From contig JANHCV010000015.1 in the NCBI GenBank assembly GCA_025594325.1, positions 496,001-560,000 of the forward strand: DNA of 64,000 bases, read 5' to 3'. The notes beneath the pieces are model-generated. The model was not told the origin of the DNA. It saw only the letters and a list, made by a program, of their open reading frames with translations, and made no database searches. Both the position numbers and the translations under genes were made by a program. Below, piece after piece: positions 24,794-45,381 of this stretch. Numbering within the stretch: the stretch's first letter is position 1; the number at the start of each line of letters is the position of its first letter. Origin of the DNA: Blastocladiella emersonii ATCC 22665. Taxonomy: Eukaryota > Fungi > Blastocladiomycota.

Positions 24794-27700
24794 ATGAAGA
24801 AAAAGTCCAAGACTAAGGGCAAAGCGTCCCGAGGCAGCGGTACTTTCTCGCCGTCGCCTTCGTCAGCGGCTTCGATTGAGCCGACCATGCCGGGTCCTGT
24901 GCTGCTTGGCGACGATGCATCGGATCCTTATTACCCTTACGGACAGTCCTACCTGCGCGACTTGCTCTTGTACCACAACCCGCGACTCGCAAAGCAGTTT
25001 GACGTTCTCGCTCTTCAGCACGCCAACCTACGCGACGTGGCGCACACGATCGGCGAGGCCAAGCGCAAGTACGGCACGGCCGACCTCAACTTTGTGCTTA
25101 CTAACACGCACCCCGAGGCCCTTGCGCGCGACTTGCTGGTGCTCCATGCGATCTCGACTGCCGAGTTTGCCAATGACCGTGTTCCTGCGCGCTTCATCAG
25201 TCAGCTGTACTTTTCACTTCTTCTCGACCCGGAAGCCCGCGCCTTTTGGGACGCCCAGATGCGCTCGTGCCTCTTGGTGAACTGGAATCGCCCGGCAGAC
25301 CGGATCCGCGTCTTTGACGACGACACCCTTCGTGCGGTACGCCGCTGCTGGGAGTCGTAGCTCGCTGCCGACTGGTCGCCCGAGCAGCTCTTTGCCTGCC
25401 GTGATAAATACTACGAAGGCGCCCGTGATCCGTCTGAAGCTCGCAGCCACGCACCCTCCTTGATGGCGGAAAAAAGCGCTGAATATGAATCGACCCATCC
25501 CAACGCCGTTGTCAACCGGACCATGCTTCGCGTCGCTCTTGACGGTTCACTCCGCTTCTCAATGCCACCCGGACACACACCGTTGCTTACTGTCCACGTC
25601 GCCGAAAAGAACCTGTTTATTGGAACGACGACGCGAGCTGGTGCTGCCCTTCTTGATGCACTTGCACCCGTTTTTGGCCCAGGGTCCGAGACTCGACGCG
25701 CAGGTTCGTATCCACTTGTCACGGAATGGGACAAGACGCCCACTCCGCCGCTCTTCCAGTGCCACATTGCATTCTGCGTCGGCCACCCGCTTGCGGCCAT
25801 GGAGTCGCTGGTCATGCGTGAACAGCGGTTCAACGCGATCCACACGGGCTCAGCGATGGACACTTGCGGCCTGCTCAATCTTCTCGTTCACGCGTCGCCG
25901 CTTCTCGCCGTCTCTTCGGGCGTCTTCCGTTCGCATGTCTACACCTCGACCAATTATCGTTCAGCCGTCTCCTGCTCTCACAGCGAATTCGTTTCCCTTG
26001 CCACTGGCCTTCCGCTCGAGGCTTTCCCGACGCTCTTGGGACTCAGTTTCCATGAACGCGCAATTTATGAAGACTGGACTTCTCACGTCTCGCGCTTCGC
26101 TTGGAGCAAGAGCCATGTCGAGCAGTCCAATGGCCGGAGCAGCGAGCGGTTCACCTTTGTCAAGCTTGACTTTCCAACCGTCCCGATTGCGCTGAAAGAG
26201 TCGCCGTTCCTTCTCGAAGCTCTCATCAATTGCGCCGAGCGTTCTTGCCATTTCCCAGCTGCGGTGTCCAGCCGAAGCCTTGGTATGCCTCGCTCATACA
26301 CTCCGCAATCGGTTGGCTATTGGTTGCTCACCATCGCCGAATACCATTTGTAGCTTCCTCTTGCGCGGCCGGCGCGCTTATCCCAAAGCTTCTTGGGTTT
26401 GCATTCGCCGCTGGGCGCCTTACGTAAAGCAGTCCTGCGGCCCAGTGCTTACCTCGGCCCAAGATGCCAGAGCTCTGGTCCACGTTTGCCAAAAACCCGC
26501 AACTCACAGCCGGAGCTGAGGAGGTGCTCGCTCAGGCCCAGCTCTACGGGTTTCCCATTGACGCAGTCGACACACAGGTCGATGACTTGTACCTCATCGA
26601 GGGCACGCTTGATCGACCCAGCGACGCGACTTTCACGCCATTCTGCGCGTCGCTCGAGATTTGCGACGGGTCGTTTACGCACGTGTTTCGGAGTCTCCAC
26701 CTCTCCCAGCTTCCGACGGGCAACGAAATGTGTGTGGCCGCCTACGTCCCGGCTTACGTCGTTCAGTCGCCGACCGACCTGAAGCCGCGACTCCGTCTTG
26801 ACTGCGTCTTGGCCGGAACCGCGGTTGCAGCAACGACCTGGTTGAGTCTTTCTGCTGTCAAGTCGACCATGGTTCCTTTTGGATCGCTCTCATCCACCTT
26901 TCTTTGCGCAATCGACTTTTCTGCGGCTAATCGATGCGTCATTACGCTTCCCACTGACGTCCTCCAGAATCGCCCGACATTGCCAGTTGTGAGCGCGGTC
27001 GAAGATGCTGGCTTTATTCGCCTCGTTCTTTCGCTTCCAAACAACAAGCTCCGTGCTGAGATCAAGGAGCGGCCGCCTCCGAGAGCCGGAGCCTGGCCTG
27101 GAAATCTTTCTCTCACAATGGGCCGGGCGAATCACGTATCCTATCGCTTTGCCTGCCCTGTCACGCTTGCCGAGCTTACAATCCAGCGCAATCTTCGCCG
27201 CGTCATGGTCACCGTCTCTCGAGTACTTTCGCCCGTCACGGCTACGCTTCCGTTTCTGCAGCTCGTTCCTTGCATGCCCGATTACTCGGACCTTTACTCC
27301 GCTGGTGATGCTAGTATGGCGGAGCATCAAGCTGCGCTTCACGCTCTGGATTTGGCGGCGACCGCGGAGGAGCTTGCGACTGTCAACCACTTGGAGAAAT
27401 TGGCAACGCACAATCCATCTGTCACGGAGCAGGCCCGCTTCCTTCGTGTCACCATCAAAAAGCTCATGGTCGCGTTCAGCGATGGAATCGCCATGGTTGA
27501 CGTCCGTGAAGCTGGGCGCGGCCACTATGCTGTGTTCCTGCTGAACCAGTTGATGGTGGTCCCCGCGCTTGATTCGGACCACATCTCAACACCAGTGCTT
27601 GACGTCAGCGTTCTTCCTCACCCTGACAATGCAGTGCAATGGGGTCGTCTGGCACCCACTGGCAACCGCTCTCTTGTAAACGCGGTTTTGCCTGCGGCCA

Positions 27701-28014
27701 TTCGGAAGCTCAATTTTGCCCCCGAGCAGACGATGGAGCTGGTCATCCCCTCAAACTACATCACCGTCTTTCAGGAGCTTATCGTTGACGGGTTCCTCTT
27801 GGCGCCCACCCGAACTGGCACCAACGATCGGGGTGGTCGTTCTGACCTTTCTGACCAGCTCAGTGAAATCATGCTTCGGACATTTCTCACTGCCTTCTTC
27901 CCAACAAACGGGGCCGAGTACCGCGTCCCAATCCAGAAACTCAATGATGGCAAGAGTGCAGAGGACGTTGACTACGGGATTGTGGATGATCGCACTGTTG
28001 AGCTCGACGACTAG
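24794..28014 (+). pseudogene. DUF4470-like family copy A; two premature stops
   Basis: N-terminus YPYGQSYLRDLL..NLRDVAHT..HPEALARDLLVLHAI resembles DUF4470. TAG 25358-25360 and TAA 26425-26427 both replace Trp seen in copy C; intron 26283-26353. Confidence 0.75.
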
Positions 28015-28149
28015 GATATTTGTTGATTTGTTGTTAATTTGCACAATTTGTATTTGATTCATTTCCAACATTGCTTCGAGCATGGGTGCTGCTGGGAGAG
28101 CAGATGTCTACGAGCCGTGGTCGTGCTTATCAAATAGTGGTGCCATCAC

Positions 28150-28375
28150 TTCAATTCACGCACGTCAAAAACATGGCGTGCTTGCGCTCAAATCCGGCAA
28201 TATCCATTCACGGTCAGCGAGGTGATGCGCAGGTACGCCACAGCCAAGCTTAGCTTCGCGCTCAGCAACCCGCATCGCGAGGTCCTCGCGCGTGACTTCA
28301 TGATTCTCCACGCCGTTTAGAGCGGCGAGCTTGTCAATGACCGCATCCCCGTGCGCTTCAAGCGACCAACAAGTT
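28150..28375 (+). pseudogene. Short decayed fragment of a DUF4470-like N-terminus
   Basis: Translates to ..FTVSEVMRRYATAKLSFALSNPHREVLARDFMILHAV*SGELVNDRIPVRF, matching HTIGEAKRKYGTADLNFVLTNTHPEALARDLLVLHAI of copy A. Confidence 0.7.
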
Positions 28376-28635
28376 TTTGGTCAGCACTCCTTGGCGCTGC
28401 TCCTTGACACAGACGCCCGTTATAGCAATTTTTGATACACTGCCTCGCATCATCCGAGTGTCTATAGCAAGTTTACGATGCTGAGGGCTCGGTGAGCCTG
28501 CCTGAGGTCGCTCGCCCGGCGCGCGCGCGACGCGACATTCACGTGCGCGTGGCGGACACGTGATGCGGTTCGTCACTGCCAATCTTCGCGCTCGCGGTCC
28601 CGCGTCGCGCTCGCTCTCCGAGAACGGCCGTTTCC

Positions 28636-30042
28636 GTGTCAAACCAACGAAGAAAAAAATCGAAGACTAAGGGCAACGTGCCCCGCGGCGCTTCCCAAAC
28701 CCCGGTGTCGCCTTCATTCGCGCCGACCGTGCTGGGGCCTGTGCTTCTCGGTGACAAGACCTCGGACCCGTACTTGCCCTTCGGCCGGTCCTATCCGCGC
28801 GACCTGCTCCTGTACCACAACCCGCGCGTCTTCAAGAAGCTTAACGTCCTTGCAGTCTAGCACTTCAACCTACGCGATGTCGCGCATACCATCGGCGAGG
28901 CCAAGCGCAAGTACGGCACCGCGGAGCTCGACTTGTGCTCGCCAATACACACCCCGAAGTCCTTGCGCGCGACTTGCTGGTGCTCCAGGCGATCTCCACC
29001 GGCGAGCTTGATGGCGAGGTCATCCCCGCCCGCTTTCTCGGTCAGCTCTACTTTTTGACGGTTTTCGAACCCGAGGCTCGCACTTTCTGGGATCAGCAGA
29101 TGCGTTCGTGCCTCACCGTGGACTGGAGCCGTCCGACAGCCCGTGTTCGTGTGCTTGACGGGGAAACGCTCCGCGCGGTGCGTTGCTGCTGGGAATCGTG
29201 GCTTGCAAACGATTGGTTGTTCGAGCAACTTCACTCTAAGCGTGGTGAAATTTACGCGACTGTTCAACACGCTTCTGCTCGTCAGGCTCAGGAGCTTCTC
29301 TTCGCGACTTCAACTACGCGGTTTTTGCAACGCTACCACGATGCCGGATACCCGCGTCGTCCAAAGACTCGTGATCTTTTTTTTGCAACTTCTTGATGAA
29401 ACGGTCTCTGGCATGTACTTGGGCGTCAAGTCCCCGGCCGGGGACGAACCGAACTTTGCCATCAACCCGAGGATGCTCCGCCTCGGTCCCGATGACAAGT
29501 TTCGCTTCTCAAACCAGCCTGATCTCTCGCCCCTGGATGTTCTCCACGCCAATGATACGGAAGCGCAGGCGCTAATTGTTTGGACCAGCACCGCTTTGCT
29601 CGACGCCCTCTTACCCGTGTCTGGTCCTGATTGCGAGGCGCAACGCGACGGCGCTTACCCGCCAGTCACCGACTGGAGCGAGAAACCCACTCCGCCCAAG
29701 TTCCAATGCCGCGTCACGCTTTGCGCGGTCAATCCGCTGACCGTCATGGAGTCGTTCGTTCCCGTTGGATCGCTTGCTTCCGTATTTACAAAATCCGTGG
29801 ACTACTCGGCGGCCACTCGGTCCATGGCGAAGCAGCGCACAATTGTGCCTGTCAAACACGTCGTCGAGGATGTTGATGCGGTCATCCTCCACCTCGACGT
29901 TCCGCTCAGGCAGCGTGCGGAGCTCATCTGCGGCTCCTCGTATGGCGGCGGAAACGGCTGTGTCGTTGAGCTTGCCATTTCCGGCAGAGGTACCCAAATC
30001 TATCAATTCTCGTACCCCATGGAACTCGCAAATGATGGAAAT
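28636..30042 (+). pseudogene. DUF4470-like family copy B, 5' part (interrupted by the PLV)
   Basis: Homologous to copies A and C; stop at 28858-28860, frameshifts near 28935 and 29395, large internal deletion joining VMES to VPVGSLAS. Confidence 0.8.
30038..30042. other. Left target-site duplication GAAAT
   Basis: Identical to 45377-45381; directly abuts the TG terminus. Confidence 0.9.
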
Positions 30043-30068
30043 TGCCGTATCCCTTAAGGGATACGGCA
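30043..30068. repeat. Perfect 26-bp terminal palindrome TGCCGTATCCCTTAAGGGATACGGCA
   Basis: Read directly; identical copy at 45351-45376. Confidence 0.97.
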
Positions 30069-30885
30069 CACGGCTGCCCTTAGGGACTTCGCCTCTGGAC
30101 TCTATCCACCCGGGCTAACCCACGTGATATCTCATTGCTTACCCCGAGTGACTCATAATGAATATAGCGATATCCTTAGGGATTTCGCCACCCGGATCGG
30201 AGGCCGAAGGCCGAAGCAGGTGGGCGGGAGGGTGGGTGGAAGGGAGGGGCGAGCGGTCCAGGAGTGAGTCCCTGACCTGACCCCTGAGCCCGTCCCTGAC
30301 CAACCGCTCGGGCTGACCATTGCTTACCCCGAGCGGTCGGCGGCGGCCGGCGAGCGCAGCGAGACGAAGAGCAGCGCAGCTGCGGCTACCCACTGACAGA
30401 GTTCCCTGGTCTGGTCCCTGAGCACAGCTGCAAGTCGATCTGTGAGCAGTCCCCGAGCCGGCCCACGACTTGGTTGGCGACTTGGTCGCGGCAGTAGGTC
30501 CACAAGAGCCCTCGGATAAATTCCACGGGCGCTCAACGGTCGCTTCAGCGGTTGGGTCAGCGGCCAGCTCCCGGTTGCTCACCCCAATCATGTCCTGATC
30601 CTGTCCTGATCCTGTCCATTAAGTTGCTCGGGGTAAGCCATGGACACCATTGACTTTGATCCTGTCCACTCTATTTGCTCGGGGTGAGCAACGGACACCA
30701 TGGACACCATCTTTTATAAACTTTGAAAAGTCAAAGAAGATGGTGACACAGAAGTCGTCGTTTGTGCGTCATGTCGTAGATCCACCGGACCTTTTCAAAT
30801 GATGGTGTCCATGGTGTCCATCGTGTCCATGGCTTACCCCGAGCGAGTTTCAATGGATGCGATCCTGTCCATCGTGTCCATGGCT
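30043..30885 (+). repeat. Left terminal inverted repeat (~843 bp)
   Basis: Reverse complement of 44535-45376. Differences spotted: substitutions at 30310 and 30772 and a short patch near 30845. The ORF track gives identical 150-aa translations in both TIRs. Confidence 0.95.
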
Positions 30886-31031
30886 TACGGCGAACGGTTC
30901 AATAAAGTGCCCGTTGAGGCGATCCTGTCCGTGGCCACGGCGAACGGTCTCGGTCAGCTCCTTGGCCGTCAGCGACCTGGTCAGCGACTTGGTCAGCGAC
31001 TCGGTTAGCGGACAGTTCAGCAATGGGTCGG

Positions 31032-31392
31032 CGGTCGCTTCAGCAGTCGGGGCAGCGGCCAGATCCCGGTTGCTCACCCCAATCATGTCCAATCATGTCC
31101 TGATCCTGTCCATTAAGTCGCTCGGGGTAAGCCATGGACACCATCGGCTTTGATCCTGTCCACTCTATTTGCTCGGGGTGAGCAACGGACACCATGGACA
31201 CCATCTTTTATAAACTTTGAAAAGGCGAAGAAGATGATGACACAGAAGTCGGCGTTTGTGCGTCACGTCGTAGATCCATTGGACCTTTTCAAATGATGGT
31301 GTCCATGGTGTCCATCGTGTCCATGGCTTACCCCAAGCGCTTTCAATGGATGCGATCCTGTCCATCGTGTCCATGGCTTACGGCGAACGGTT
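31032..31392 (+). repeat. ~360-bp direct-repeat copy of the inner part of the left TIR (30537-30899)
   Basis: Co-linear with scattered substitutions; rich in TGTCCAT/ATGGACA and GCT(T/C)ACCCC motifs. Confidence 0.9.
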
Positions 31393-31441
31393 TGTAAAAC
31401 AAAAGGTACAAAGTATATTCAAAGCATTCAGAGTGATCCTG

Positions 31442-33757
31442 TTACTCCTCGTCGCTGTCAATGTCCATGGGCGAGAGGTAAGTGTACACAGTGTTGCGGC
31501 GACCAGTTGTGCGTCGCGTCGACTTGAAGAGCGGCTTTGAGGTGATAGGGTGAAGTGCCTTGGGGAACTTGGCGCCAAATGCCTTCTGGGACACGGTTGA
31601 GCGGCCAGGGAAGCGCTGCTCGTTGTAAGCGCGGTACATGTCGTAGACCTCCAAGGCCTCGAGCTCCCGCGTGACCTGCACATCCTGGCCACGGTTGGTG
31701 AGACCAACAGGGAAGCCGTCGTACTCAACGACTTCCTTGAGCAGCGCGCTGATTGGATCCATGCTTGCCGCCACCACGTCGTCGCGGTCCTTGTTGCGCG
31801 GGAAGTCGGCCAGATCAATGTGCGAGAGGTCGACGCGGCGCAGGTACGTGAAGATCTCGTTGGCGTGCGCCTTGAAAAACGCCTTGAGCGCCTTGAAGTA
31901 CGGGCGGTTCCGGCGGCGGAGGTTGGACATCTCAAGGACGAACTCGCGACGACCAGTATCAGTGAGCGGGAGCGGGTCGGGGTTGTTGGTTGCAAGGACA
32001 AAGTTGTTGACGTTGATTGAGGGTTTCGCGTCAATGTGCTTCTTGTTGACCATGGTCTTGCTGTCCGTGATCATGTTCTTGAGCTTGTCAAAGGCGCTTG
32101 TTCCACCCTTGCTGGACGGCATCTCGTCGAGCAGCACAAGCATCTTGTTGGCAATCTGGCTGTTGAAGGTGCCCTCAATGAACGTGGGCCTGTTGTTGAT
32201 GGACACGACGTTGCCCTCGCCAAGGATGTTGTCGGCCAGCAGCTCGTAGAACACGCCCTTGCCCGTGCCCTCGAGCCCCGTCAGGACCAGCATCACGCCG
32301 TTGGCCCGCCCCGTGGTGAGCAGCTCCTGGATCCACTTGAGGACGTACTGGTACTCGAGGTCGCGGCCGCTGCAGACCACGTCGCGGAGGTACTCGAGGT
32401 ACATGGCAATGGACTCGGGCGCAACGTCCTCGATGAGCTCCGTGGTCAGGAAGCCCTGGAACGCGTTGAAGTTTTCGACCACAAGGCCGCCCTGGTCCGC
32501 GGGGCCCCACTGCGGCGCGTCAATCTCAAAGATGCGCGCCTTGACCTGCGGCGCGTACTCGAGGACGTTGTAGCTCGACGTCACGAACTGGACGGTGTCC
32601 TTGCCAATGTCCATCTCCCACTTGTCCGTCACGGTGCGGCGAAAGTAGAACTTGCCCGTGGTGAGGTCCTTGCGGATGAACAGGCCCACGTACAGCGTGG
32701 CCGCCACCTCCCACAACTCCTTGCCCTCGTCGTCCTTGATCTTGCCAATGTGGTTGATGACGTCGTTGATCCACGGCTTCTTGTAGTTCGGGTCGCGCTC
32801 AAGCTGCTCGTTGACAAAGGCCTCCGCGTCCTCGCAGAAGAGCGGGAACTTGGCCTCCTTGGTTGGCGGGTTGCCGGCCATGACCTCCTTCTCATCCCAC
32901 TTGACGTCGAAGCCCGTGTGCTCGAGCGTGTTGGCCAACATCGCGGCAAGGAACTCAGCCGTGACGCGGTTGTCCTTCTTGACCATGAACCCATCAAACA
33001 TGAGCACGCTCGGCTCAAGGCCATGGCCGCGCGCAAACTCGATGGCGCGCATCAGGATGATCGACTCGACAGCCTGGAACAGGTTCGAGAGCACCGAGCC
33101 CATGTTGGCCCGCTTGGACGCCTTGACAATGTGGGGGAGGTCGCGGGCGAGCAGCGTGGGCAGCGTCTCGAACAGCGTCTTGTGCAGCGCCTTGAGGTCG
33201 TCGTGGAGGTTCACACGCTTCTCGTAGCTGTTGAAGATGAGCTTGAGGAACTCCCCCTTGGACGCGAGGCCCCACTTGGCCAGCGCGGCCGCGCGGTCGT
33301 CAAGGTACTGGTCAAACGCGCCGTGGTTGAGCCCATAGTGCTTGAGGACGCCGCGGAGGATCGACGGACCAGCGCCAATCATGTCGAGGTCCTGGAGCAC
33401 GCCATGGGCCAGCGGGCTGCGGAAGCGGTCCTTGTTCATGCGCTGCATCGACACAGACGTGGGGTAGAGTCGACCAAAGCGCTTCTCGATCGTGCGCGAC
33501 TTGGTGTTGAACAAGTACGCGGTCTCCTTGCGCCAGACCGAGCCCGACTTCTCAATTCGGCTCTTGTACGCGCGGAGCATCTTCTTCTCCTCGCCAATAA
33601 CGCCCAAGCTGGGCTCAAGGAGCCCATCGAGCATGCCCTTGTTGAAGTACTTGTACACCACGACCTGGCGCGAGTCATCGAACTGGGACTCGGTAGACTT
33701 GAGGGTCTCGGCAATCTTGTTCAGATGATCCATGGTCGTGTTGTTACTGTTGGCCAT
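31442..33757 (-). CDS. TVpol (family A polymerase-like primase-polymerase) fused to SF3/D5-like helicase (~771 aa)
   Basis: N-half GRLY, DLDMIGAGPSIL, FQAVESIIL, LMFDGFMV (TVpol-type motifs); C-half Walker A GLEGTGKG, Walker B VLLDEM, motif C VLATNN and GRRE; start MANSNNTT chosen from upstream motif. Confidence 0.82.
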   Translation of the reverse strand: MANSNNTTMDHLNKIAETLKSTESQFDDSRQVVVYKYFNKGMLDGLLEPSLGVIGEEKKMLRAYKSRIEKSGSVWRKETAYLFNTKSRTIEKRFGRLYPTSVSMQRMNKDRFRSPLAHGVLQDLDMIGAGPSILRGVLKHYGLNHGAFDQYLDDRAAALAKWGLASKGEFLKLIFNSYEKRVNLHDDLKALHKTLFETLPTLLARDLPHIVKASKRANMGSVLSNLFQAVESIILMRAIEFARGHGLEPSVLMFDGFMVKKDNRVTAEFLAAMLANTLEHTGFDVKWDEKEVMAGNPPTKEAKFPLFCEDAEAFVNEQLERDPNYKKPWINDVINHIGKIKDDEGKELWEVAATLYVGLFIRKDLTTGKFYFRRTVTDKWEMDIGKDTVQFVTSSYNVLEYAPQVKARIFEIDAPQWGPADQGGLVVENFNAFQGFLTTELIEDVAPESIAMYLEYLRDVVCSGRDLEYQYVLKWIQELLTTGRANGVMLVLTGLEGTGKGVFYELLADNILGEGNVVSINNRPTFIEGTFNSQIANKMLVLLDEMPSSKGGTSAFDKLKNMITDSKTMVNKKHIDAKPSINVNNFVLATNNPDPLPLTDTGRREFVLEMSNLRRRNRPYFKALKAFFKAHANEIFTYLRRVDLSHIDLADFPRNKDRDDVVAASMDPISALLKEVVEYDGFPVGLTNRGQDVQVTRELEALEVYDMYRAYNEQRFPGRSTVSQKAFGAKFPKALHPITSKPLFKSTRRTTGRRNTVYTYLSPMDIDSDEE

Positions 33758-33896
33758 GGTAAAAGTGAGACAACTTTGATGCGGAAAAACGCAGTTGGGA
33801 GCGGGGGTGGGGCCGTGCTTTTGAAGCGCCACGATTATCGCTATTGCTGCTGGCCGTGTCTGGGTACGTGTGCAGTTAGTCACTGCAAAAAGGTAT

Positions 33897-34263
33897 GGGG
33901 GTCAGGTGGGGGTCAGGTGGGGGTCAGGCGGGGGTCAGGCGGGGGTCAGGTGGGCGGTCAGGCGGGGGTCAGGTGGGCGGTCAGGTGGGCAGTCAGGTCA
34001 AGGGTGCCAGGTCGGGGGGTCAGGTCAAGGGCGCCAGGTCGGGGGGTCAGGTCAAGGGCGCCAGGTCTGAGGTCAGGGTTGGAGGTCAGGGTTGGAGGTC
34101 AGGGTCGGAGGTCAGGGTCGGAGGTCAGGGTCAGAGGTCAGGGTCGGAGGTCAGGGTCGGAGGTCAGGGTTGGAGGTCAGGGTTGGAGGGGGGGGGGTGC
34201 CTTGTTGGCATGGCCCATGACTTGCCACCACCCTGACCCTGACCCTGACCCTGACCCTGACCC
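33897..34263. repeat. GGGTCA/GGTCAGG repeat array followed by inverted (CCCTGA)5
   Basis: Many GG(G)GTCAGG units at 33897-34197 plus (CCCTGA)5CCC at 34231-34263, between divergent TVpol and YR genes. Confidence 0.9.
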
Positions 34264-34345: not shown

Positions 34346-35560
34346 ATGTCGCTCGAGTCTCTTGCCTCCCAGGTCGCCGTTGCCCTTGTTCAGCATGTCG
34401 CCGCGGTTGTAGTGCAGCAAGTTGTGGACAAGCTCCAGTCCGTGTTTGGGTCGATCGACAAGCGCTTCAAGGACTTGGACAAGCGCTTCAAGGACTTGGA
34501 CAAGTGCTACAAGGACTTGGTTGAGCGCTTCAAGGACTTGGAGGCGCGACTCAAGACCGTCAAGTCACACGACCCAGACCACGGCGCTGATCAGCAAGTC
34601 ACTCCCATGGAAGTCGACACCCCGGAGCCGCCCCAAGTCAAGTTTGCCGAGCTGACCAAGGAGGCCATCGAGGCATGTGTCAACGCGCCCGTGGTGAACA
34701 AGAACGGGGAGCAGGCCGAGCTGGACGACACGGACAAGGCCAAGATGGCTCGTGTGCTCCTTGCATTTGCCAAGTCGGGCATGGATATCCACAACGTTGA
34801 TGCCGTGTCCAAGGCCGTGGCCACGTACCGCGCGACCAAGGGGTCCAAGAACGTCCAGGGACTGCAGGTTGAGACGCTCAAGGCCCTTGCCAAGTACTGT
34901 ACGTGGAACGGGTGGACCGAGCTTGGGGCCAAGTACACAGAGGCCAAGAAGCGGGACGCTGACGCCAGCGTGGACGTGCGCAAGGAGCTTGAGTCGGGCG
35001 CCCTTCCAAGCCGTGCCGTTCTGCTGGCCGCTGCGGTTGCTGCCGAAAAGTGGGACAAGCTCGAGTGCACGGGCACCATGCGCTACCTGCGTCTCTACCT
35101 CCAAGTCGTGTGCGCGACCCGCTCCGACCTCGCGTTCCTGACCACGGCCGCGAGCGACAAGTACCCGTTCTACGATCCCGCGACCAAGACGCTGGCTGGC
35201 CCTGTGTGCGTCAAGACTGAGGGTCGTGGCTACGAGTTCTCGCACGTCATTGCCGACCCCAACGTGGCAGCCGCTCTGGAGCGGGTCATGGCCAAGCGCA
35301 AGGAAGACGGCTACGAGCTGCTGTTCTTTGACTACGCGATCAAGGACCTCGAGGACGCCAAGGTGAACGCAGCCATTCGCAAGGACTGGTCCAAGACGAT
35401 CGGCCTTGCTACCAAGAAGCTCAAGTTTGACGGGTGCGGCGTGCAGCAGATCCGTCGCATTGCCACAAGTGAGAACGCAGCAGCGTACGCGGCCATCACT
35501 CAGCGCGCCAACGAGATGGGTCACAGCGTGCCCGTCGCTGTCAAGAACTACATGGTGTAA
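34346..35560 (+). CDS. Tyrosine recombinase-family protein with N-terminal coiled coil (404 aa)
   Basis: Catalytic-type series R (ATRSD), K (VKT), QQIRR, and MGHSVPVAVKNY with H..Y spacing of 9 as in Xer/Int; DKRFKDL heptads x4 (34457-34540). Confidence 0.75.
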   Translation: MSLESLASQVAVALVQHVAAVVVQQVVDKLQSVFGSIDKRFKDLDKRFKDLDKCYKDLVERFKDLEARLKTVKSHDPDHGADQQVTPMEVDTPEPPQVKFAELTKEAIEACVNAPVVNKNGEQAELDDTDKAKMARVLLAFAKSGMDIHNVDAVSKAVATYRATKGSKNVQGLQVETLKALAKYCTWNGWTELGAKYTEAKKRDADASVDVRKELESGALPSRAVLLAAAVAAEKWDKLECTGTMRYLRLYLQVVCATRSDLAFLTTAASDKYPFYDPATKTLAGPVCVKTEGRGYEFSHVIADPNVAAALERVMAKRKEDGYELLFFDYAIKDLEDAKVNAAIRKDWSKTIGLATKKLKFDGCGVQQIRRIATSENAAAYAAITQRANEMGHSVPVAVKNYMV

Positions 35561-35580: not shown

Positions 35581-36693
35581 ATGTATCCGCACGAAGAGCC
35601 TTTGACTGCTGAACAGACCGAGTACTTGAAAGACTTGTACTACAAACGCGGCCACGTCGGGGTCGGGATCCGCCGGCTCTTTGACATTGTTGACCGCGAG
35701 CACACAGGGAAGCACATTTACCGCGCCCAGCTCGAGCGGTGGCTCAACGACCAGTCCGTGTGGCAGCAGTACAAGCGCGCACCACAGAAGCGGCGAGACA
35801 TTCGAAGCATCAGCTCAACCAGTCCAGGACGCAACTTCCAGCTTGACCTCATTGACATGGGCGAAAACGGTACGTACAACGGCTTCAGGTACATTCTTAC
35901 GTGTGTCGATCTGGCGAGTCGGCGCGTCTACCTACGCCCAGTCAAGACCAAGGACAAGACGCGAGAAGCATGGTCCAGCGTGGTCGCCAAGCACAGCCTT
36001 GTACCTGCCACGATCCAGACCGACAATGGCACCGAGTTCTTTGGCATTGAGGCCGGGACCGACGTCAAGCACATCAAGGGCAAGGCAGGAGTGCCATACG
36101 GTCAAGGTGTTGTTGAGCGTATGAACGGGACGGTGCGCCGGATGCTGACGCCGTGGCTGTCCATTGCTGGCAACAACGACTGGCCCAAGCACCTCGAGAC
36201 CATTGAATCTGTGATCAACAGCAGCAAGTCGAGGGCCACGGGCAGGGCGCCAAACGAGTTCCATGACATGCCACAAGAAGCGGCCAAGCAAGAGCTCAAG
36301 GAGATCCGAGCTGCCAAGGGCAAGCCCGAGGGCGACCCTCTGAGCGCGTTGTTGAAGGTAGGGGCCCAGGTCCGAGTCCGCGAGCCGTACAAGACTGCCA
36401 TGGAGGCCAAGGGGAAGCCGGTCTGGTCGCCAACTGTGAGCCAGGTCCAGGTCGTGCGCAAGGGGTCGGGCGTGAGCAATCCGAGCTACAAGGTCCAAGG
36501 CCTCAAGGGCTTCTACCCTCGAAGCGACGTCCAGCCAGTCACAGCGACCCAGGACCCGCCAACAAGGCAGCGCATGCCCCCGCGTCTTCCAAGGCTCCCT
36601 GTTGCGCGCACCCCAGTCACGCCAAGGGAGCCCTTGACCCGGGTCAGGCGCGTCCCAGTCCGAGTCCAAGAAAAGTGGGACCGCGGGCTTTAG
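35581..36693 (+). CDS. Polinton/Maverick-type retroviral-like (rve) integrase (370 aa)
   Basis: DDE triad FQLDLID / QTDNGTEF / GVVERMNGT; C-terminal LKVGAQVRV..WSPTV..SYKV segment typical of Polinton integrases. Confidence 0.92.
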   Translation: MYPHEEPLTAEQTEYLKDLYYKRGHVGVGIRRLFDIVDREHTGKHIYRAQLERWLNDQSVWQQYKRAPQKRRDIRSISSTSPGRNFQLDLIDMGENGTYNGFRYILTCVDLASRRVYLRPVKTKDKTREAWSSVVAKHSLVPATIQTDNGTEFFGIEAGTDVKHIKGKAGVPYGQGVVERMNGTVRRMLTPWLSIAGNNDWPKHLETIESVINSSKSRATGRAPNEFHDMPQEAAKQELKEIRAAKGKPEGDPLSALLKVGAQVRVREPYKTAMEAKGKPVWSPTVSQVQVVRKGSGVSNPSYKVQGLKGFYPRSDVQPVTATQDPPTRQRMPPRLPRLPVARTPVTPREPLTRVRRVPVRVQEKWDRGL

Positions 36694-38633
36694 AGCATGG
36701 TCCAGTGGCTCTGAATGATGACCTGGCAGTCGTTGGCAACTGCGACCGATGGGATCCAGATGAAAGAGTAGCTCTTGGCCACGTCAAGGTACTCAATGCT
36801 CGAGAACTGAAGGAACTGGACGTTGCCTTCAGCGCGGCACCCAGTGACAAGCGACACTGCAATCATGTCTGTCATGTTGTACAGCGCAAAGTTCACAGTG
36901 TGGGATCCAGGGAGCGCGCCGTTTGCGTAGTAGCCCTTTGCATGGACAAGGTAGTAGCCACTGACAGGGGGTTTGACGCATCCATTGATCACGGACGTGA
37001 ACGCGCCCGCCGTGGACTGGAACGCAAAGGTGGCCGGACCTGTCGACGCTGTGCCGCCAATGATCTTGCCGCCCGTGGTCACTCCGTTTGTGGAGCGGTG
37101 CTCGGCCTGAGCAACGTACCGGGTCGTGCCAGACTGCGAGTCGACGTACGCCTTGTTTGCCGCGTCGGTGCCTGCCACGGGAGCGAGGTCAAGGGTGAGC
37201 TGCCCTGTAAACCGACCAGTGCCATTGACGCGGAGCTTTTCTGTGCCAAGCGTTGCCGAGCCCACGACCACGTTGCCGCCACCTGCCACGAGGGAGACCC
37301 CGCCCGTGGTCGCAGACGCAATCTCAATGTTACCCGCCGCTGTGCATGCCAGGTTGCTTCGCAGTACGCCTGCCTGCTTAAAGTCGACGTACGTCAATGT
37401 ATTGGCAGCCGAGTCAAAGACAAGGTTTGCGCTTGTGGCATTCCGGACCAGGACGTTGGGCACAGTCAGTTGCTTGCCAACTCCAAGACCACCAGCAATG
37501 GTGACTGCTCCAGTGCTTGACGTCGAGCTGTCCGTCGTATTCGCAAAGGCAAAGGCAGCGCCGAGCCCAAGGGTGGACTGGGGGAGCGTGCCAGTGACCG
37601 AGGCCGCGCTCACGGCCATGACCTTGGCCGAGACGTCGGGGAGTCGTGCCAGGTCAATGGTCCCTGCAAGCTTGGCCGAGTCAATGCCAGATGCCAGCTT
37701 GGCGTTGGTCAGGGCCCCGTCGGCGATGCGGGCAGGGTCGAGGGTCCCAGTGAGTTTGACTGCCGACACATCCGTGACCTTGGCGTCTGTGACTGAGCCT
37801 GCTGCCAGCTGGACCGTTCCAATGGACCCAACGTTGAGCTTGGCCCCGTCAATGCCAGTTGCCAGCTTGGCGTTGGTCACGGCCGCGTCTGCCAGGACCG
37901 AGGTGCCGACTGTGCCGGCTGCCAGCTTGGACCCATCAATGCCAGTTGCCAGTTTGGCGTTGGATACGGCTGCGTCTGCCAGGGCTCCCGTCCCAATAGT
38001 CCCTGCAACAAGCTTGGACCCAGACACGGACGCGACCTTGGCATCCGTGACTGCCAGGTCAATGAGAGCTGCCGTGCCGACTGTGCCTGCCACGAGCTTG
38101 GACCCGGACACGGACGCGACCTTGGCATCAGTCACTGCGCTGTCTGCCAGGACCGAGGTCCCGACTGTGCCTGCCACAAGCTTGGACCCAGACACGGACG
38201 CGACCTTGGCATCAGTCACTGAGCCGTCTGCCAGGACCGAGGTCCCAACGGCTGGGAGGTTGGACGCACTGAGCACGCCCACGACCTTGGACGCAGACAC
38301 AGTGTCCAGCTGAGCATCAACGAGCTTGCCTGTGACCTGCCCTGCTGTAATGGTCGCGACCTTGTCGGCCGTGACGCTGGCCGGGAGCAGCTGTGCCGTG
38401 CCAACCGACTTGACAAAGAGCCCTGCTGCGCCCACGCCAAGGGTCTGGTTGTCGACCTTGGCCGAGACAGTGGTCCCTGAGACTGCCACGCCAGGGCCAG
38501 CAACAGGTGCACCGACTGTGGCATACACGGTACTGATGGCCGCGTCGACGTATGCCTTGGACACGTCCGGGACCCCTGTGGCAGACATGGTCGGAGACGC
38601 AGTACTTGAGACGTTAAAGATATTCTTGACCAT
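36690..38633 (-). CDS. Putative fibre/spike protein (~647 aa)
   Basis: ~26-aa LADxAVTxAKxA..GSKL repeats, SSSTGAVTIAGGLGVG, two KAYVD motifs, C-terminal beta-rich (C1q-like) head; stop overlaps the integrase stop. Confidence 0.7.
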   Translation of the reverse strand: MVKNIFNVSSTASPTMSATGVPDVSKAYVDAAISTVYATVGAPVAGPGVAVSGTTVSAKVDNQTLGVGAAGLFVKSVGTAQLLPASVTADKVATITAGQVTGKLVDAQLDTVSASKVVGVLSASNLPAVGTSVLADGSVTDAKVASVSGSKLVAGTVGTSVLADSAVTDAKVASVSGSKLVAGTVGTAALIDLAVTDAKVASVSGSKLVAGTIGTGALADAAVSNAKLATGIDGSKLAAGTVGTSVLADAAVTNAKLATGIDGAKLNVGSIGTVQLAAGSVTDAKVTDVSAVKLTGTLDPARIADGALTNAKLASGIDSAKLAGTIDLARLPDVSAKVMAVSAASVTGTLPQSTLGLGAAFAFANTTDSSTSSTGAVTIAGGLGVGKQLTVPNVLVRNATSANLVFDSAANTLTYVDFKQAGVLRSNLACTAAGNIEIASATTGGVSLVAGGGNVVVGSATLGTEKLRVNGTGRFTGQLTLDLAPVAGTDAANKAYVDSQSGTTRYVAQAEHRSTNGVTTGGKIIGGTASTGPATFAFQSTAGAFTSVINGCVKPPVSGYYLVHAKGYYANGALPGSHTVNFALYNMTDMIAVSLVTGCRAEGNVQFLQFSSIEYLDVAKSYSFIWIPSVAVANDCQVIIQSHWTML

Positions 38634-38653
38634 GTTTAACATAGGCAAACAGA

Positions 38654-39004: not shown

Positions 39005-40720
39005 ATGGGCCAAAGAACAGTACCAGAGCTACTCGCAAGAGTGACCAAGGCAACCGGCGGGCGCATCACGGCAGAGCGCCTTGTAGGGCAGAAGATCAAG
39101 GCGACCATTGACGGCCGCGAGTACACGTTCCCCAATGCCAAAGAGCTCCTCGACGTCTGGGTGCCGTACATCCTTGCCTTTGACTACAAGGTGACGCCCG
39201 AGAGCTATGCCAACGACTTTGACTGCAAACGAGGCAACTCGCTGTTCTACCTCAAGCACCAGGACGGCGTCACTGGGTACGAGGTCAAGGACCTCCAGGA
39301 GCACGTCCAAGACACGATTAAAGCGTGGGAGGAGCTCGAGGCAACGGGCAAAGTCACTCGAGTCCCAGTCGCTCCACCAGCGGCAAGTCCCGGACCAGAG
39401 CCCCCCGAGTCGGCCACGGACAGCGACAGGGGTAGCAGCGAAGAGGAACGCGACGAGCTGGCAGAAGAGATCTCGCGAGCCCTGGACGTCATTGACGAGG
39501 ACGCTGTACCAGACCACTTGCTCCCCGTGCCCATCCGGCCAGTCATGCCCGAGCAGTACCCGGTCGAGGCCGGCGACTACGTTGGCCAAGACATTGACGA
39601 GTACGGCGCCATGATCCCTGGCCGGTACCTGATCCAGAACGACAATGACGGCGGCAACGACCTCCCGCCACGACTTGACGACGGCACACGCGACATTGTG
39701 GTCATGCCACCAAGCTACGGCCCCAACGTGGCACAGCGGCCGAGCGTGTACAACAAGGGCCACGTCCACCCGGCCATGGATGAGGCACGCATGATCGAGG
39801 GCTCCAAGGACTTGCAGGTCTACAACCCCGAGCGGGCGCTGACGACCACGGATGACATGGAAGTTGACGTCGTCCAGAACTTTCAACAGTTCAACCAGTT
39901 CGTCTACAACAGCTACACGCAGCAGGACACCCAGAACATTGACATGCGGCAGTTCATCACCCAGTACGAGAACAACTACTACGAGCAGAACGTGGACATG
40001 CGGCAGCAGATCCTGGTCCAGTACAACAATGACCCAAACGTCATGGCCGCGCTCGAGCTCATTGCATCGCAGTTTGCTGGGTCCCAGGTCATGCAGTACC
40101 AGGCGTACCAGGCGCTCATTGATCAGACGGCGGCCGCTCAGGGACTGGCCATGGACTCGTTTGCCAACCTCACGTCCAGGATCGTGGACACGCTCCGAGC
40201 TGAACGCAACGACTTTGTCCGCCAGATCGACGCTGGCAACCGCGCGCTCGTCTCTGAGATTGCCACGGGCATGTCCTCAGCGCTCAGCAACCAGCAGGTG
40301 CTCATGAACCAGCTTGCAAGCGGCGTCCAGGGCGCGATCCAGGGGCAGACCCAGAGCAACGAGGCCATGACCAAGACGCTCCAAGACCTTGGGTCCAAGC
40401 TGGACACTATTCCTGCACCCCAAGTCGTTGTCCAGCCTGCTGACACGAGCAGCCTCGAGGCCATGATCAGGGAGCTCGCCGCGCAAAACAATTCTGGCAG
40501 TAGTTCTAAGAAGACTGACATGCTCCTCGAACAGATCCTCAAGCAACTGGGCTACAAGAAGCCGACCGACGCGAAGCTGTTCACAGACAAGCGAGCAGCG
40601 GGTAGCGGGCTGACGGCACCCAAGATCCAGCGTCACCAGAAGATCCCTGAGCGGCCTGTCAAGCAGGTCCGCGAGACCCCAAAGCGCAGCGGCATTGTCT
40701 TTGACCTTGGCTGGGACTGA
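39005..40720 (+). CDS. Unknown PLV protein with Gln/Asn-rich coiled-coil region (571 aa)
   Basis: Long intact ORF directly upstream of the morphogenesis genes. Confidence 0.75.
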   Translation: MGQRTVPELLARVTKATGGRITAERLVGQKIKATIDGREYTFPNAKELLDVWVPYILAFDYKVTPESYANDFDCKRGNSLFYLKHQDGVTGYEVKDLQEHVQDTIKAWEELEATGKVTRVPVAPPAASPGPEPPESATDSDRGSSEEERDELAEEISRALDVIDEDAVPDHLLPVPIRPVMPEQYPVEAGDYVGQDIDEYGAMIPGRYLIQNDNDGGNDLPPRLDDGTRDIVVMPPSYGPNVAQRPSVYNKGHVHPAMDEARMIEGSKDLQVYNPERALTTTDDMEVDVVQNFQQFNQFVYNSYTQQDTQNIDMRQFITQYENNYYEQNVDMRQQILVQYNNDPNVMAALELIASQFAGSQVMQYQAYQALIDQTAAAQGLAMDSFANLTSRIVDTLRAERNDFVRQIDAGNRALVSEIATGMSSALSNQQVLMNQLASGVQGAIQGQTQSNEAMTKTLQDLGSKLDTIPAPQVVVQPADTSSLEAMIRELAAQNNSGSSSKKTDMLLEQILKQLGYKKPTDAKLFTDKRAAGSGLTAPKIQRHQKIPERPVKQVRETPKRSGIVFDLGWD

Positions 40721-40746: not shown

Positions 40747-41544
40747 ATGTACGACATTGTTGCCATTGATAACGGCTTTACACGCAACGACGACGGCGAG
40801 CCGCTGCCAATCCCCAAGCACCCGTTCACCATGAACGTCATTGGTGCCAAGGGTCAGGGCAAGTCGACGCTGATCGCGAACATGGTCTGCTTCCCGCACT
40901 TTTACAAGGGCCAGTTTGACAACATCTGGGTGTTCAACCCGACGTTCCACGCCGACGACAAGTACGAATACATTGCCAGTCAACCAATCCTGCGACCGCC
41001 CAAGAAGGAGCGCAACGTGCTGGACCCCCAGGAGCGCGACCCGGACCGGCTCAAGATCAAGCCAAACTGCATCGTCACGGACCCCGAGCAGTTCATCCCG
41101 ACCCTGCTCAAGATGCGCCAGGACCTGACCAAGACATTTGAAGAGTCTGGCAAGAAGGCGCTCCAGGACCAGCTGCTGATCATTGACGACGTGCTTGGGC
41201 TCAAGCTGCTGAGCCACAGAACGCTGACCAACTTTCTGTGCAACTCGCGGCACTTGAAGATCAGCTGCATCATTGGCGTCCAGCGGTGGTGTGCCCTGCC
41301 CAAGACTCTGCGCATCAATTGCAGCTACAGCGTCGTCTACCCAATCTATGACAAGACCGAGGTCCAGACGCTGCACAAGGAGATTGGGTTGCAGTTTGAC
41401 CTCAAAGAGTTTGAGGCCATCATTGAACAGCTCTTTGACACGCGTACTGGCAACACAAAGCGACGCTTCCTGGGCGTCAACAACCAGAACCCGCCCAAGT
41501 ACCGGCTTGTAGACAGCTTCAGCGAGTGGATCGTGAAGCAGTAG
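40747..41544 (+). CDS. A32-like (FtsK/HerA) genome-packaging ATPase (265 aa)
   Basis: Walker A IGAKGQGKS, Walker B LIIDD, SRHLKIS..VQ..LPKTLRIN typical of A32 ATPases. Confidence 0.92.
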   Translation: MYDIVAIDNGFTRNDDGEPLPIPKHPFTMNVIGAKGQGKSTLIANMVCFPHFYKGQFDNIWVFNPTFHADDKYEYIASQPILRPPKKERNVLDPQERDPDRLKIKPNCIVTDPEQFIPTLLKMRQDLTKTFEESGKKALQDQLLIIDDVLGLKLLSHRTLTNFLCNSRHLKISCIIGVQRWCALPKTLRINCSYSVVYPIYDKTEVQTLHKEIGLQFDLKEFEAIIEQLFDTRTGNTKRRFLGVNNQNPPKYRLVDSFSEWIVKQ

Positions 41545-41584: not shown

Positions 41585-42805
41585 ATGTCAAGCACCGTTG
41601 CCCAGTTCTCGCAGGTCCTGTCCAAGACGCTCCCTCCCGAGATGTCGTTCAACCTGCCCAAGGAGTCTGTCTATGCCGAGCGTCAGACTGTCCAGTTCAC
41701 AGCCCAGAGTGGCCCCGAGTACATTCCTGGCAACACGGTTCGCATCCACCTCCCGCCAAACGATTACATGATGGACACGCACTGCACGTTCCTGCAGTTC
41801 AGCGCCAAGACCACCGACGCAAACGTTGCGTTTGCTGAAGGCATCTACAGTGTCATTGAGCGCGTGCGCATCACCAGCGCTGGCTCAAACCTGCTTGAGG
41901 ATCTTCCATACTACAATCTGCGTCAGCGCATTGAGGCTGGCGTGACTGTCCCGCAGTATCTCAAGGATTCATGCCTCGGCGTGGCTCAGGGCTACTATGC
42001 GTCTGGCGCTGACAAGTTTGCTGTCTCGTCCGGGCTGCACCGGTACATGATCCCTATCAAGTCGGCCCTGCTGTCGAACCAGAAGCACCTGCCCATCAAG
42101 TACACAGGCGGGCTGGTCGTCGAGATCACTCTTGCGCCTGGCATTGATGCCTGCGTGGTCAAGAACGGCGCTGTTCCAGGCTACTCAGTCAGGGACATGT
42201 GCATTGTGTCCGACGTGATCAAGCTCAACGACCAGCAGATCGCAGTAATGGACGCCGCCTTCAAGAAGCAGGGCCTGAAGCTCTTTGGAACGACGTACAC
42301 TCACCACTTCTTGAACTACTCGGTGCCCAACTCGACGCTGAACATCTGCGACCGCTCTGCCTCGCAAAAGGACATCCTGCTGTTGTTCCGCGACAATGCT
42401 GTGCTCAACGACCACTCCAAGGACTCGTTCCTTCGCGCCAAGACCATCTCAACGTACCAGTTCAACGTGGCTGGCCAACTCTTCCCTCAGAAACCCATCC
42501 GCTGTGACGACTACGCGTCCGAGGCGTTTGTTGAGCTGACCAATGCCTTCCATGGCCACGTCATTGGCGCAGGCATGATGGTCGACAAGTACAACGCGCC
42601 ATCCGAGGGTACCTTTGTCCTCGGCCGTGACCTGGAGTCGAGTCGCACTGTGGTGAGCGGCGACAAGTTGTGCAAGTCGCGGGCCGTGGACATGCAGGTC
42701 ATTGTTACCTCGAACGTGGCCCCGAACCAGCGCGTGGACGCCTTCATTGGCATTGACGTGGTCTACGAGTTCCTGCCAACTGGCGAGATCAACATCTACA
42801 AGTAA
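41585..42805 (+). CDS. Double jelly-roll major capsid protein, PLV type (406 aa)
   Basis: YIPGNTVRIHLP..MDTHCTFLQF..GIYSVIERVRI..LLEDLPYYN pattern of PLV MCPs; position between ATPase and penton. Confidence 0.85.
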   Translation: MSSTVAQFSQVLSKTLPPEMSFNLPKESVYAERQTVQFTAQSGPEYIPGNTVRIHLPPNDYMMDTHCTFLQFSAKTTDANVAFAEGIYSVIERVRITSAGSNLLEDLPYYNLRQRIEAGVTVPQYLKDSCLGVAQGYYASGADKFAVSSGLHRYMIPIKSALLSNQKHLPIKYTGGLVVEITLAPGIDACVVKNGAVPGYSVRDMCIVSDVIKLNDQQIAVMDAAFKKQGLKLFGTTYTHHFLNYSVPNSTLNICDRSASQKDILLLFRDNAVLNDHSKDSFLRAKTISTYQFNVAGQLFPQKPIRCDDYASEAFVELTNAFHGHVIGAGMMVDKYNAPSEGTFVLGRDLESSRTVVSGDKLCKSRAVDMQVIVTSNVAPNQRVDAFIGIDVVYEFLPTGEINIYK

Positions 42806-43130: not shown

Positions 43131-43874
43131 ATGTCCGAGTACAAGACGCTAACCATCTGCAGCCGCGACCTCAAGAACGGTGTCCTGTTCCTCCCGCAGC
43201 CCCTGTCCGTGCGCGGCGTCAAGGTCAACTCGGCGTACCTCTGCAACAGCTGGCACATGGTCAACTCCAAGGCCAACAAAGTGTACCTGACGCAGAGTCG
43301 TGGCGCGCTGACGTTCCCTGGCACCATCACAGTCCCTGATGGCAACTACACGGTTGATACATTCATGGCCACGCTCAAGAGCCTGCTCAACAACGCGCCC
43401 TCGACGTACCTCTGGCAGGGCACCTGGGACGTCCAGGTCGACTCGACTACCCAGAAGATGCGCCTGGCCAACGACACGGTCGACTTTACAATTGGAACAG
43501 GGACGGCGTCGCTGAACGTCCACATGGGTTTTGTTGGAGCGTATGGCTACAGCAAGGTCCAGTACGGGTCGGCGCTGGTCAACATCTCGCCCATCAACCT
43601 GCTTCACGTCTATTCGCGCAACCTTGGCACCCGGCTCGCGGACAACATGTACAGTGCGTACCCACAAGGCAACGGCGTGCTGTGTAGCATCCACGTCACG
43701 CAACCCTTTGGCAGCTGGTTCGAGCATCGACCGCACATGGGTGACTACTTTCGCTTTGACGCGCAGGGACAGGCCCAGCAGATTGACTGCATTGATATTG
43801 ACGTGGTAGACGAGAACCTGCGCTCGGTCGACTTTCTTGGCCAGCCCTTCTACGTCGAGCTCGCGTTCATCTGA
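43131..43874 (+). CDS. Minor capsid (penton) protein, single jelly-roll (247 aa)
   Basis: ITVPDGNYT..LKSLL, HMGF, C-terminal IDCIDIDVVDENLRSVDFLG..VELAF typical of Polinton/PLV mCP. Confidence 0.85.
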   Translation: MSEYKTLTICSRDLKNGVLFLPQPLSVRGVKVNSAYLCNSWHMVNSKANKVYLTQSRGALTFPGTITVPDGNYTVDTFMATLKSLLNNAPSTYLWQGTWDVQVDSTTQKMRLANDTVDFTIGTGTASLNVHMGFVGAYGYSKVQYGSALVNISPINLLHVYSRNLGTRLADNMYSAYPQGNGVLCSIHVTQPFGSWFEHRPHMGDYFRFDAQGQAQQIDCIDIDVVDENLRSVDFLGQPFYVELAFI

Positions 43875-44534: not shown

Positions 44535-45376
44535 AGCCATGGACACGATGGACAGGATCGCATCCATTGAAAGCACTCGGGGTAAGCCATGGACACGATG
44601 GACACCATGGACACCATCATTTGAAAAGGTCCGGTGGATCTACGACGTGACGCACAAACGACGACTTCTGTGTCACCATCTTCTTTGACTTTTCAAAGTT
44701 TATAAAAGATGGTGTCCATGGTGTCCGTTGCTCACCCCGAGCAAATAGAGTGGACAGGATCAAAGTCAATGGTGTCCATGGCTTACCCCGAGCAACTTAA
44801 TGGACAGGATCAGGACAGGATCAGGACATGATTGGGGTGAGCAACCGGGAGCTGGCCGCTGACCCAACCGCTGAAGCGACCGTTGAGCGCCCGTGGAATT
44901 TATCCGAGGGCTCTTGTGGACCTACTGCCGCGACCAAGTCGCCAACCAAGTCGTGGGCCGGCTCGGGGACTGCTCACAGATCGACTTGCAGCTGTGCTCA
45001 GGGACCAGACCAGGGAACTCTGTCAGTGGGTAGCCGCAGCTGCGCTGCTCTTCGTCTCGCTGCGCTCGCCGGCCGCCGCCGACCGCTCGGGGTAAGCAAT
45101 GGTCAGCCTGAGCGGTTGGTCAGGGACGGGCTCAGGGGTCAGGTCAGGGACTCACTCCTGGACCGCTCGCCCCTCCCTTCCACCCACCCTCCCGCCCACC
45201 TGCTTCGGCCTTCGGCCTCCGATCCGGGTGGCGAAATCCCTAAGGATATCGCTATATTCATTATGAGTCACTCGGGGTAAGCAATGAGATATCACGTGGG
45301 TTAGCCCGGGTGGATAGAGTCCAGAGGCGAAGTCCCTAAGGGCAGCCGTGTGCCGTATCCCTTAAGGGATACGGCA
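44535..45376 (-). repeat. Right terminal inverted repeat (~842 bp)
   Basis: Reverse complement of 30043-30885. Confidence 0.95.
45351..45376. repeat. Perfect 26-bp terminal palindrome (right end)
   Basis: Identical to 30043-30068. Confidence 0.97.
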
Positions 45377-45381
45377 GAAAT
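45377..45381. other. Right target-site duplication GAAAT
   Basis: Identical to 30038-30042. Confidence 0.9.

Follow-up and report, generated by a model that had tools for sequence, protein, structure and literature searches.

A perfect 26-bp palindrome forms each tip of an integrated polinton-like virus (PLV) in the genome of Blastocladiella emersonii, and these palindromes probably represent the opened, copied-out form of hairpin genome ends in an element without protein-primed PolB (pPolB). The tyrosine recombinase (YR) encoded beside the rve integrase of this element may, by analogy with telomere resolvases, remake hairpins from the duplex palindrome, a role that is considered possible but rather doubtful.

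In the window, i.e., the whole analyzed stretch of 64,000 nucleotides, the element occupies positions 30043-45376 (15,334 bp), and its GC content is 59% compared with 64% in the flanks. The following features of the element and its borders were annotated:

30038..30042, + strand: target-site duplication (TSD) GAAAT, left copy
30043..30068, unstranded: perfect palindrome of 26 bp at the left terminus, TG...CA, symmetric about the boundary of 30055 and 30056
30043..30885, + strand: left terminal inverted repeat (TIR), 99.4% identical to the right TIR over 843 bp
30078..30093, + strand: sub-terminal repeat CCTTAGGGAYTTCGCC, copy 1
30174..30189, + strand: sub-terminal repeat CCTTAGGGAYTTCGCC, copy 2
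31032..31392, + strand: second copy (94%) of the inner TIR segment 30537-30899, with GCTYACCCC iteron-like motifs
31442..33757, - strand: replication protein, 771 aa, C-terminal D5-like SF3 helicase (helicase by family match)
33896..34263, unstranded: tandem arrays with units of 11, 13/14 and 6 bp that separate the divergently oriented replication and YR genes; 44467-44520 mirrors them in part
34346..35560, + strand: YR-fold protein, 404 aa (structure model, catalytic residues)
35581..36693, + strand: rve (DDE) integrase, D89/D148/E179
36690..38642, - strand: fibre-like protein with 84-87-bp repeats
39005..40720, + strand: open reading frame (ORF) of 571 aa, no assigned function
40747..41544, + strand: A32-like packaging ATPase (Pox_A32, E 3.6e-13)
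41585..42805, + strand: probable double jelly-roll (DJR) major capsid protein (embedding-neighbour lead only)
43131..43874, + strand: probable minor capsid protein (penton) (position and size only)
44535..45376, - strand: right TIR
45351..45376, unstranded: right terminal 26-bp perfect palindrome
45377..45381, + strand: TSD GAAAT, right copy

Features characteristic of PLVs were present, namely the A32-like ATPase and, for a genome size of 14-40 kb with long TIRs, a length of 15,334 bp with TIRs of 843 bp. With respect to the strict definition of Polintons/Mavericks, an rve integrase with a 5-bp TSD was found and a pPolB was not: in line with the initial annotation, no PolB-family match was obtained among the 10 element ORFs scanned, and the sole ORF of more than 700 aa in the element encodes the helicase fusion. 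The element is an integrated PLV, for which the major and minor capsid proteins are only probable. The putative major capsid protein showed feature scores of 0.97-0.98 to Atlas clusters with DJR/capsid families on 10-24% of their members, at a recognition value of 1983, which is below the 2300 mark, and had no Pfam or PHROG match; the putative penton had no family match in profile searches. The rve match (E 1e-6) lies below the curated cut-off, and D/D/E is kept in all three aligned proteins. In the N-terminal region of the replication protein, GRLY, DLD and FDG motifs were recognized by eye in the order expected for a PolA/TV-Pol-like domain, which is characterized by a palm with a conserved Arg hairpin and two Asp; neither profile nor tblastn searches gave a match for this part. 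The motif GCTYACCCC occurs 16 times, in both orientations, in the end regions (30137-31334 and 44579-45282) and once elsewhere, about one occurrence being expected, and these motifs are candidate origin iterons. Segment 44467-44882, inside the right end, matches, in inverted orientation, the segment before the helicase gene (31032-31378) and also, weakly, the tandem array at 33912-34077 past that gene (41-42 bp at 83%). The arrangement looks as if the replication gene had been inserted into a once longer TIR, which would fit the end-module turnover model described in PMC11296320.

The palindrome, TGCCGTATCCCTTAAGGGATACGGCA, had been noticed at both termini in the initial annotation and is present there in two exact copies, at 30043-30068 and 45351-45376. 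No third match with up to three mismatches was found in the 64-kb window, and 0 of 100 shuffles yielded any match at this threshold. Among the perfect palindromes of the window it is the longest, the runner-up measuring 18 bp, and Markov simulations of 64 kb contained a 26-bp palindrome anywhere in one of 100 cases. By itself, the length is an event of about 1%, and it is the position that matters: the palindromes are non-random because they coincide exactly with the outermost 26 bases at either end of the TIR pair, with GAAAT bounding both sides. As both copies are part of the TIR, they are not independent evidence. The layout of two 10-bp arms around a CTTAAG core was described correctly beforehand; since CTTAAG is self-complementary, the site is of the type 13+13 without an asymmetric spacer. 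Of the two resemblances initially proposed, the one to protelomerase targets is better supported than the one to lox or dif sites, the core being fully symmetric. The 26-mer folds into an 11-bp stem with a 4-nt loop, and folding of 30043-30200 gave z = -3.6. The partial motifs pointed out at 30077-30085 and 30171-30183 are present and belong to the 16-bp repeat CCTTAGGGAYTTCGCC, of which all four copies in the window are located in the TIRs, two in each (0.03 expected). The partial motifs resemble the palindrome half-site modestly, and 8 of 13 matches are reached by one of them; in 30069-30200, five half-site matches of this 8/13 type were counted versus 1.5 expected (p about 0.016).

Entry of the element by means of the rve integrase and not the YR, in agreement with the first assignment, is supported by the TG...CA ends, the 5-bp TSD GAAAT and the unrelated flanks at other copies. 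No TSD is generated by YRs (PMC12220804). Contigs originating from four sequencing runs (X1-X4) were considered, all derived from one sample, so the family evidence is that of one genome. All flank junctions listed, comprising the two ends in the window and at least three further ones with mutually unrelated flanks, meet the element at the first base of the palindrome, and the palindrome is therefore wholly viral, without a host att site. An assembly artefact was ruled out by contigs of three of the four runs that bridge the left junction. The insertion interrupts a host ORF with nearby paralogues, whose divergence at the insertion point precludes an independent confirmation of the TSD. This host paralogue family flanks the element in inverted orientation (24680-30042 and 48758-52068), one member carrying DUF4470 and one being truncated by the insertion. 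Moreover, four host ORFs of low complexity, rich in Gly/Asn/Ser, were observed at 1402-2028, 24049-24540, 46179-46805 and 47797-48411; they are related to each other and have downstream sequence in common.

All named homologues of the YR and of the ATPase originate from B. emersonii. In this species, 23 other YR loci with about 40-90% identity were listed, and a YR tag lies within five numbers for 13 of the 16 named ATPase locus tags. The element is a member of a multi-copy family in which the YR is a regular component. Depth at the TIR tip amounted to about 3-6x host depth (e.g., 872 vs 150 in X2). A subfamily represented by three contig records (at roughly twice the host depth in X1 and X2) carries the exact palindrome, followed by 25 bases with three differences, and has a divergent interior after 30093. 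Among the contig rows listed for X4, one end has a right arm finishing ACA, as compared with GCA here, followed by a different interior; a separate row, perhaps from another contig, holds a loose end finishing TGTT before 30047. If the two rows belong to one contig, they would fit a core that was kept while the outer arms changed almost mirror-wise. Contig depth at 30260-30460 greatly exceeds the depth at the TIR tip (150 vs a host depth of 13 in one X3 record), which indicates a segment common to more subfamilies or to non-autonomous derivatives. Circle or hairpin junctions and a 26-bp scar, by which the initial annotation proposed to recognize YR action, were not encountered in the contigs listed: no strand-changing joint occurs among the records of the four runs, and no loose end behind 30068 (scar) or 30042 (empty allele) among 34 contig records. 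This is a weak test, and the absence of a scar, an empty allele or a fold-back joint counts neither way because contigs drop rare forms.

Terminal palindromes of this kind have been described for Halocafeteria seosinensis, where virophages of subtypes 1, 2, 5 and 6 as well as PLV subtype 4 carry palindromes at the TIR tips by the TSDs, non-pPolB replication genes and an RVE integrase, and where a hairpin-priming model was proposed for them (bioRxiv 10.64898/2026.07.28.741278). In contrast to the B. emersonii element, the host is a protist and the palindrome of subtype 5 measures 52 nt instead of 26; furthermore, RVE together with YR is reported for virophages and not for PLVs, and the available text of that work proposes no resolvase role for the YR. 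The mid-GC EMALEs of Cafeteria burkhardae resemble the present element in the combination of rve and YR, the absence of a pPolB, a long primase/helicase ORF, TIRs and mostly 3-5-bp TSDs (PMC8547959). They are, however, virophages and not PLVs, the main text of the report mentions neither palindromes nor hairpins in its available part, and the YR is assigned to giant-virus integration (PMC8547959). TVpol-S3H/OLV11-like PLVs with a YR, such as PgVV (Gezel-14T) and Tetraselmis Tsv-S2x, share the TIRs and a helicase-primase module adjoining the YR, whereas no rve is reported for them in the available texts and the window element has both enzymes (PMC4642659, bioRxiv 2025.10.09.676808). In Tetraselmis, (AT)n forms the ends of the PLVs that have a D5 helicase and a YR, but not of the one with pPolB (PMC4642659, bioRxiv 2025.10.09.676808). 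According to our own reading, the (AT)n ends of Tetraselmis S2x are self-complementary; they could instead be target sites.

For the element in B. emersonii, the following course of events is proposed. The free genome would be linear, each end turning at the CCCTT/AAGGG axis, and the helicase/polymerase-like protein would copy it through head-to-head junctions. The rve integrase would nick after CA, 13 bp from the tip, or take an already copied-out blunt TG...CA end, and join it to host DNA. Host gap repair would then copy the unfolded hairpin, leaving a perfect 26-bp palindrome and a 5-bp TSD at each end. In general, a hairpin-ended DNA that is nicked n bases from its tip, joined by its 3' end and repaired should automatically yield a perfect palindrome of 2n bp, and the outcome would be the same if the hairpins were first copied out to blunt ends. 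Since nicking and repair alone would create a perfect palindrome, perfect symmetry cannot by itself be taken as a sign of a recombinase site, a point overlooked in the initial annotation. The order of TSD, TG, axis 13 bp in and CA is the arrangement that nicking and repair would predict, with no need of a YR binding site, and the differing palindrome lengths here and in Halocafeteria subtype 5 would be explained as well.

Further support comes from the known substrates of both enzyme classes. Protelomerases act on palindromic junctions, making cuts 6 bp apart (PMC3558466), and recombinase sites need asymmetry between the cuts, which directs Cre and Xer (PMC12270096); the fully symmetric core therefore fits hairpin-telomere substrates better than lox or dif sites. 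Retention of the exact palindrome in the subfamily with a diverged interior also speaks for hairpin ends, although it could instead reflect binding of rve or YR. The association of palindromes with non-pPolB replication genes in Halocafeteria, the (AT)n ends of the Tetraselmis PLVs and the mid-GC EMALEs with YR and rve and without pPolB agree with this reading as well. Against hairpin ends, a stem of 13 bp is short, and the free genome of the element is not among the observations. No precedent was found for rve acting on a hairpin-capped end. Within the hairpin-end reading, hairpins could be remade from the duplex palindrome by the element's own YR acting as a telomere resolvase, which carries a little under half of the weight, or independently of the YR, by fold-back priming or by cruciform cutting through a host or helper-virus resolvase, which carries a little over half.

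The protein encoded at 34346-35560, initially annotated as a tyrosine recombinase, is supported as a YR-fold protein in which the catalytic R, K, R, H and Y are kept. N-terminal heptad repeats precede a core-binding and a catalytic domain with R259, K290, Q367-x-x-R370, H393 and Y402. The N-terminal region contains four copies of a 21-bp (heptad) repeat at 34457-34542, where the homologues P0002 and P0005 are short of 21 residues. An AlphaFold model built from 17 homologous sequences reached a pLDDT of 83, the single-sequence model having a pLDDT of 36. In VIA-align comparisons, the former aligned with XerA (Z 10.0, rmsd 11.2, 230 residues), Cre (Z 9.6, rmsd 6.5, 243 residues) and XerH (Z 9.4, rmsd 5.4, 253 residues), and with the protelomerases TelK and TelA at Z 5.3-5.5 and 4.5, respectively. 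The modelled fold is closer to Xer/Cre than to protelomerases. Foldseek ranked TelA first at a non-significant E of 0.033, and three viral matches were significant, including uncharacterised Hokovirus and Aureococcus virus proteins. In a language-model (Atlas) search, the YR scored 0.98 to Preplasmiviricota hypothetical proteins, 0.97 to a Phage_integrase cluster and 0.96 to a ResT/TelK cluster, with which it shares only 148 of 256 features. The Phage_integrase profile matched two of eight YR family members (best E 0.005) and not the window's own YR, PF16684 (ResT-TelK_cat) matched none of the eight at E up to 10, and the YR profile, run against PDB sequences, returned only an irrelevant match. 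P0018, a B. emersonii gene model of 563 aa annotated as a YR-rve fusion, is probably a gene-model join of two adjacent ORFs.

Catalytic K, H and Y are invariant in all eight family members and both Arg are present in all seven full-length rows, while the His of H-x-x-R is replaced by Gln, Ala or Arg. The Arg-to-His spacing of 23 is also that of Cre and XerD. Tyr-x-x-Arg and a 28-residue spacing, which are probably conserved across the telomere resolvase family, are absent from the YR with its Gln-x-x-Arg and spacing of 23. In TelA, the corresponding features are Y363/R366 and H394 at a spacing of 28 (PMC3558466). Judged from model and residues, the YR looks intact, and membership in the protelomerase family is not demonstrable. 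The fold class leaves the activity unsettled, because a few mutations are sufficient to make TelA a Cre-like recombinase (PMC12270096). TelA, TelK and ResT have in common with the element's enzyme a YR-type catalytic domain and with its site a short perfect palindromic target with a symmetric 6-bp core (PMC3558466, PMC12270096). They differ in the weaker structural match as compared with Xer/Cre, in the Gln found here for Tyr363 of TelA and in the missing ResT-TelK_cat Pfam match, and their replicons are, in the sources at hand, bacterial or phage and without an rve stage, unlike the element. Cre-loxP and Xer-dif systems share the core-binding and catalytic fold and the short arms around a 6-bp core, but their cores are asymmetric and that of the element is symmetric.

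In its full form, the resolvase proposal derives the YR from a Cre/Xer-like recombinase that, within small eukaryotic DNA viruses, would have turned independently into a hairpin telomere resolvase. By cutting CTTAAG, the core of each integrated palindrome, the enzyme would release the virus in a single step as a linear molecule with hairpin ends; it would also resolve replicated junctions, and rve would open the hairpins for integration. This proposal is tentative. In its favour, YR and rve are kept side by side despite entry by rve, the site has resolvase-type symmetry, and the same rve and YR pairing occurs in EMALEs without pPolB (PMC8547959). The recombinase-like fold of the model and the motif spacing argue against it, as does the palindromic PLV subtype 4 of Halocafeteria, a host whose PLVs are reported without YR (bioRxiv 10.64898/2026.07.28.741278); the reported absence could be a miss, because the window's YR itself has no Phage_integrase match. 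The published role of the YR in giant-virus integration is a further competing explanation. Were the palindrome instead a Cre/Xer-type site, the YR would excise a circle and leave a 26-bp scar, resolve circular dimers or mediate insertion of the element in a helper giant virus, and hairpins would not be involved at any stage. The closest structural matches, XerA, Cre and XerH (Z 9-10, 230-253 residues aligned, rmsd 5-13 A), and the Arg-to-His spacing agree with such an enzyme; the 10+6+10 layout and a sequence kept across subfamilies suit a binding site, and circularisation is generally assumed for YR-bearing PLVs (PMC12220804). This explanation is nevertheless unlikely: a symmetric core confers no directionality (PMC12270096), entry left the marks of rve (TSD) and not of a YR, and palindromic ends also occur in the PLV subtype reported without YR (bioRxiv 10.64898/2026.07.28.741278). 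Furthermore, a circle joined at the palindrome would carry a perfect palindrome of about 1.7 kb, identical in sequence to a replicated hairpin junction.

The palindrome might also be a by-product or a mere integrase-recognition end that arose once by snap-back repair and was kept by rve binding or TIR homogenisation, without a role in replication and with the YR acting elsewhere, e.g., on a giant-virus target. The Halocafeteria authors offer accidental annealing and tie palindromes to particular RVEs (bioRxiv 10.64898/2026.07.28.741278), and giant-virus integration is the published role of the YR (PMC8547959; bioRxiv 10.64898/2026.07.28.741278). The symmetry is, however, perfect and kept where the adjoining interior diverged, and the link with pPolB loss is reported to recur in other hosts (Halocafeteria, Tetraselmis); this origin is unlikely.

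Neither the exact nor a degenerate palindrome was matched in IMG/VR or JGI metagenomes. The 18-bp core of the palindrome, found in three viral contigs (L001:454-471, L002:3001-3018, L003:3001-3018), was judged unrelated there, given the 34% GC of these contigs, its internal position, the lack of TG/CA ends and their lack of tblastx similarity to the element; in all three, it adjoins a partial tandem copy. Scans of viral contigs with YR, helicase, ATPase and rve, and of metagenomes with the YR, yielded no relative. In a survey of 8,300 elements, rve and YR co-occurred in 12, all via nested retrotransposons (PMC12220804); a true rve and YR pair in a PLV is unusual and, in the available text, was not found in that survey. 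Palindromic termini have already been reported, together with a hairpin model, for virophages and PLVs that lack pPolB (bioRxiv 10.64898/2026.07.28.741278). What is new is the pairing of adjacent rve and YR genes in a fungal PLV, along with the proposed YR-resolvase link. No proposal of a PLV YR resolving hairpin ends was found in the literature searched; the nearest one, by Barth et al., suggests that YRs could use TIRs as substrates and resolve dimers at the ends of entomopoxviruses (PMC11296320). PLVs are mentioned for chytrid genomes (bioRxiv 10.64898/2026.06.19.733378), a PNAS survey of protists left out fungi, and no literature on Blastocladiella with polinton was found.

The element bears on how ends are copied in PLVs and virophages without a protein-primed polymerase and on how rve-integrated ones exit the chromosome. 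It offers an exact 26-bp candidate substrate, two candidate enzymes that are both intact and, in the assembly of one strain, some two dozen diverged copies, so that co-variation between end sequences and YR subfamilies is computable and the enzyme can be assayed with oligonucleotides. If the YR does act as a resolvase, its presence beside rve in elements that lost pPolB, such as this PLV and the mid-GC EMALEs, would be explained, and many of the 'second integrases' in virophages and PLVs would have to be regarded as replication enzymes.
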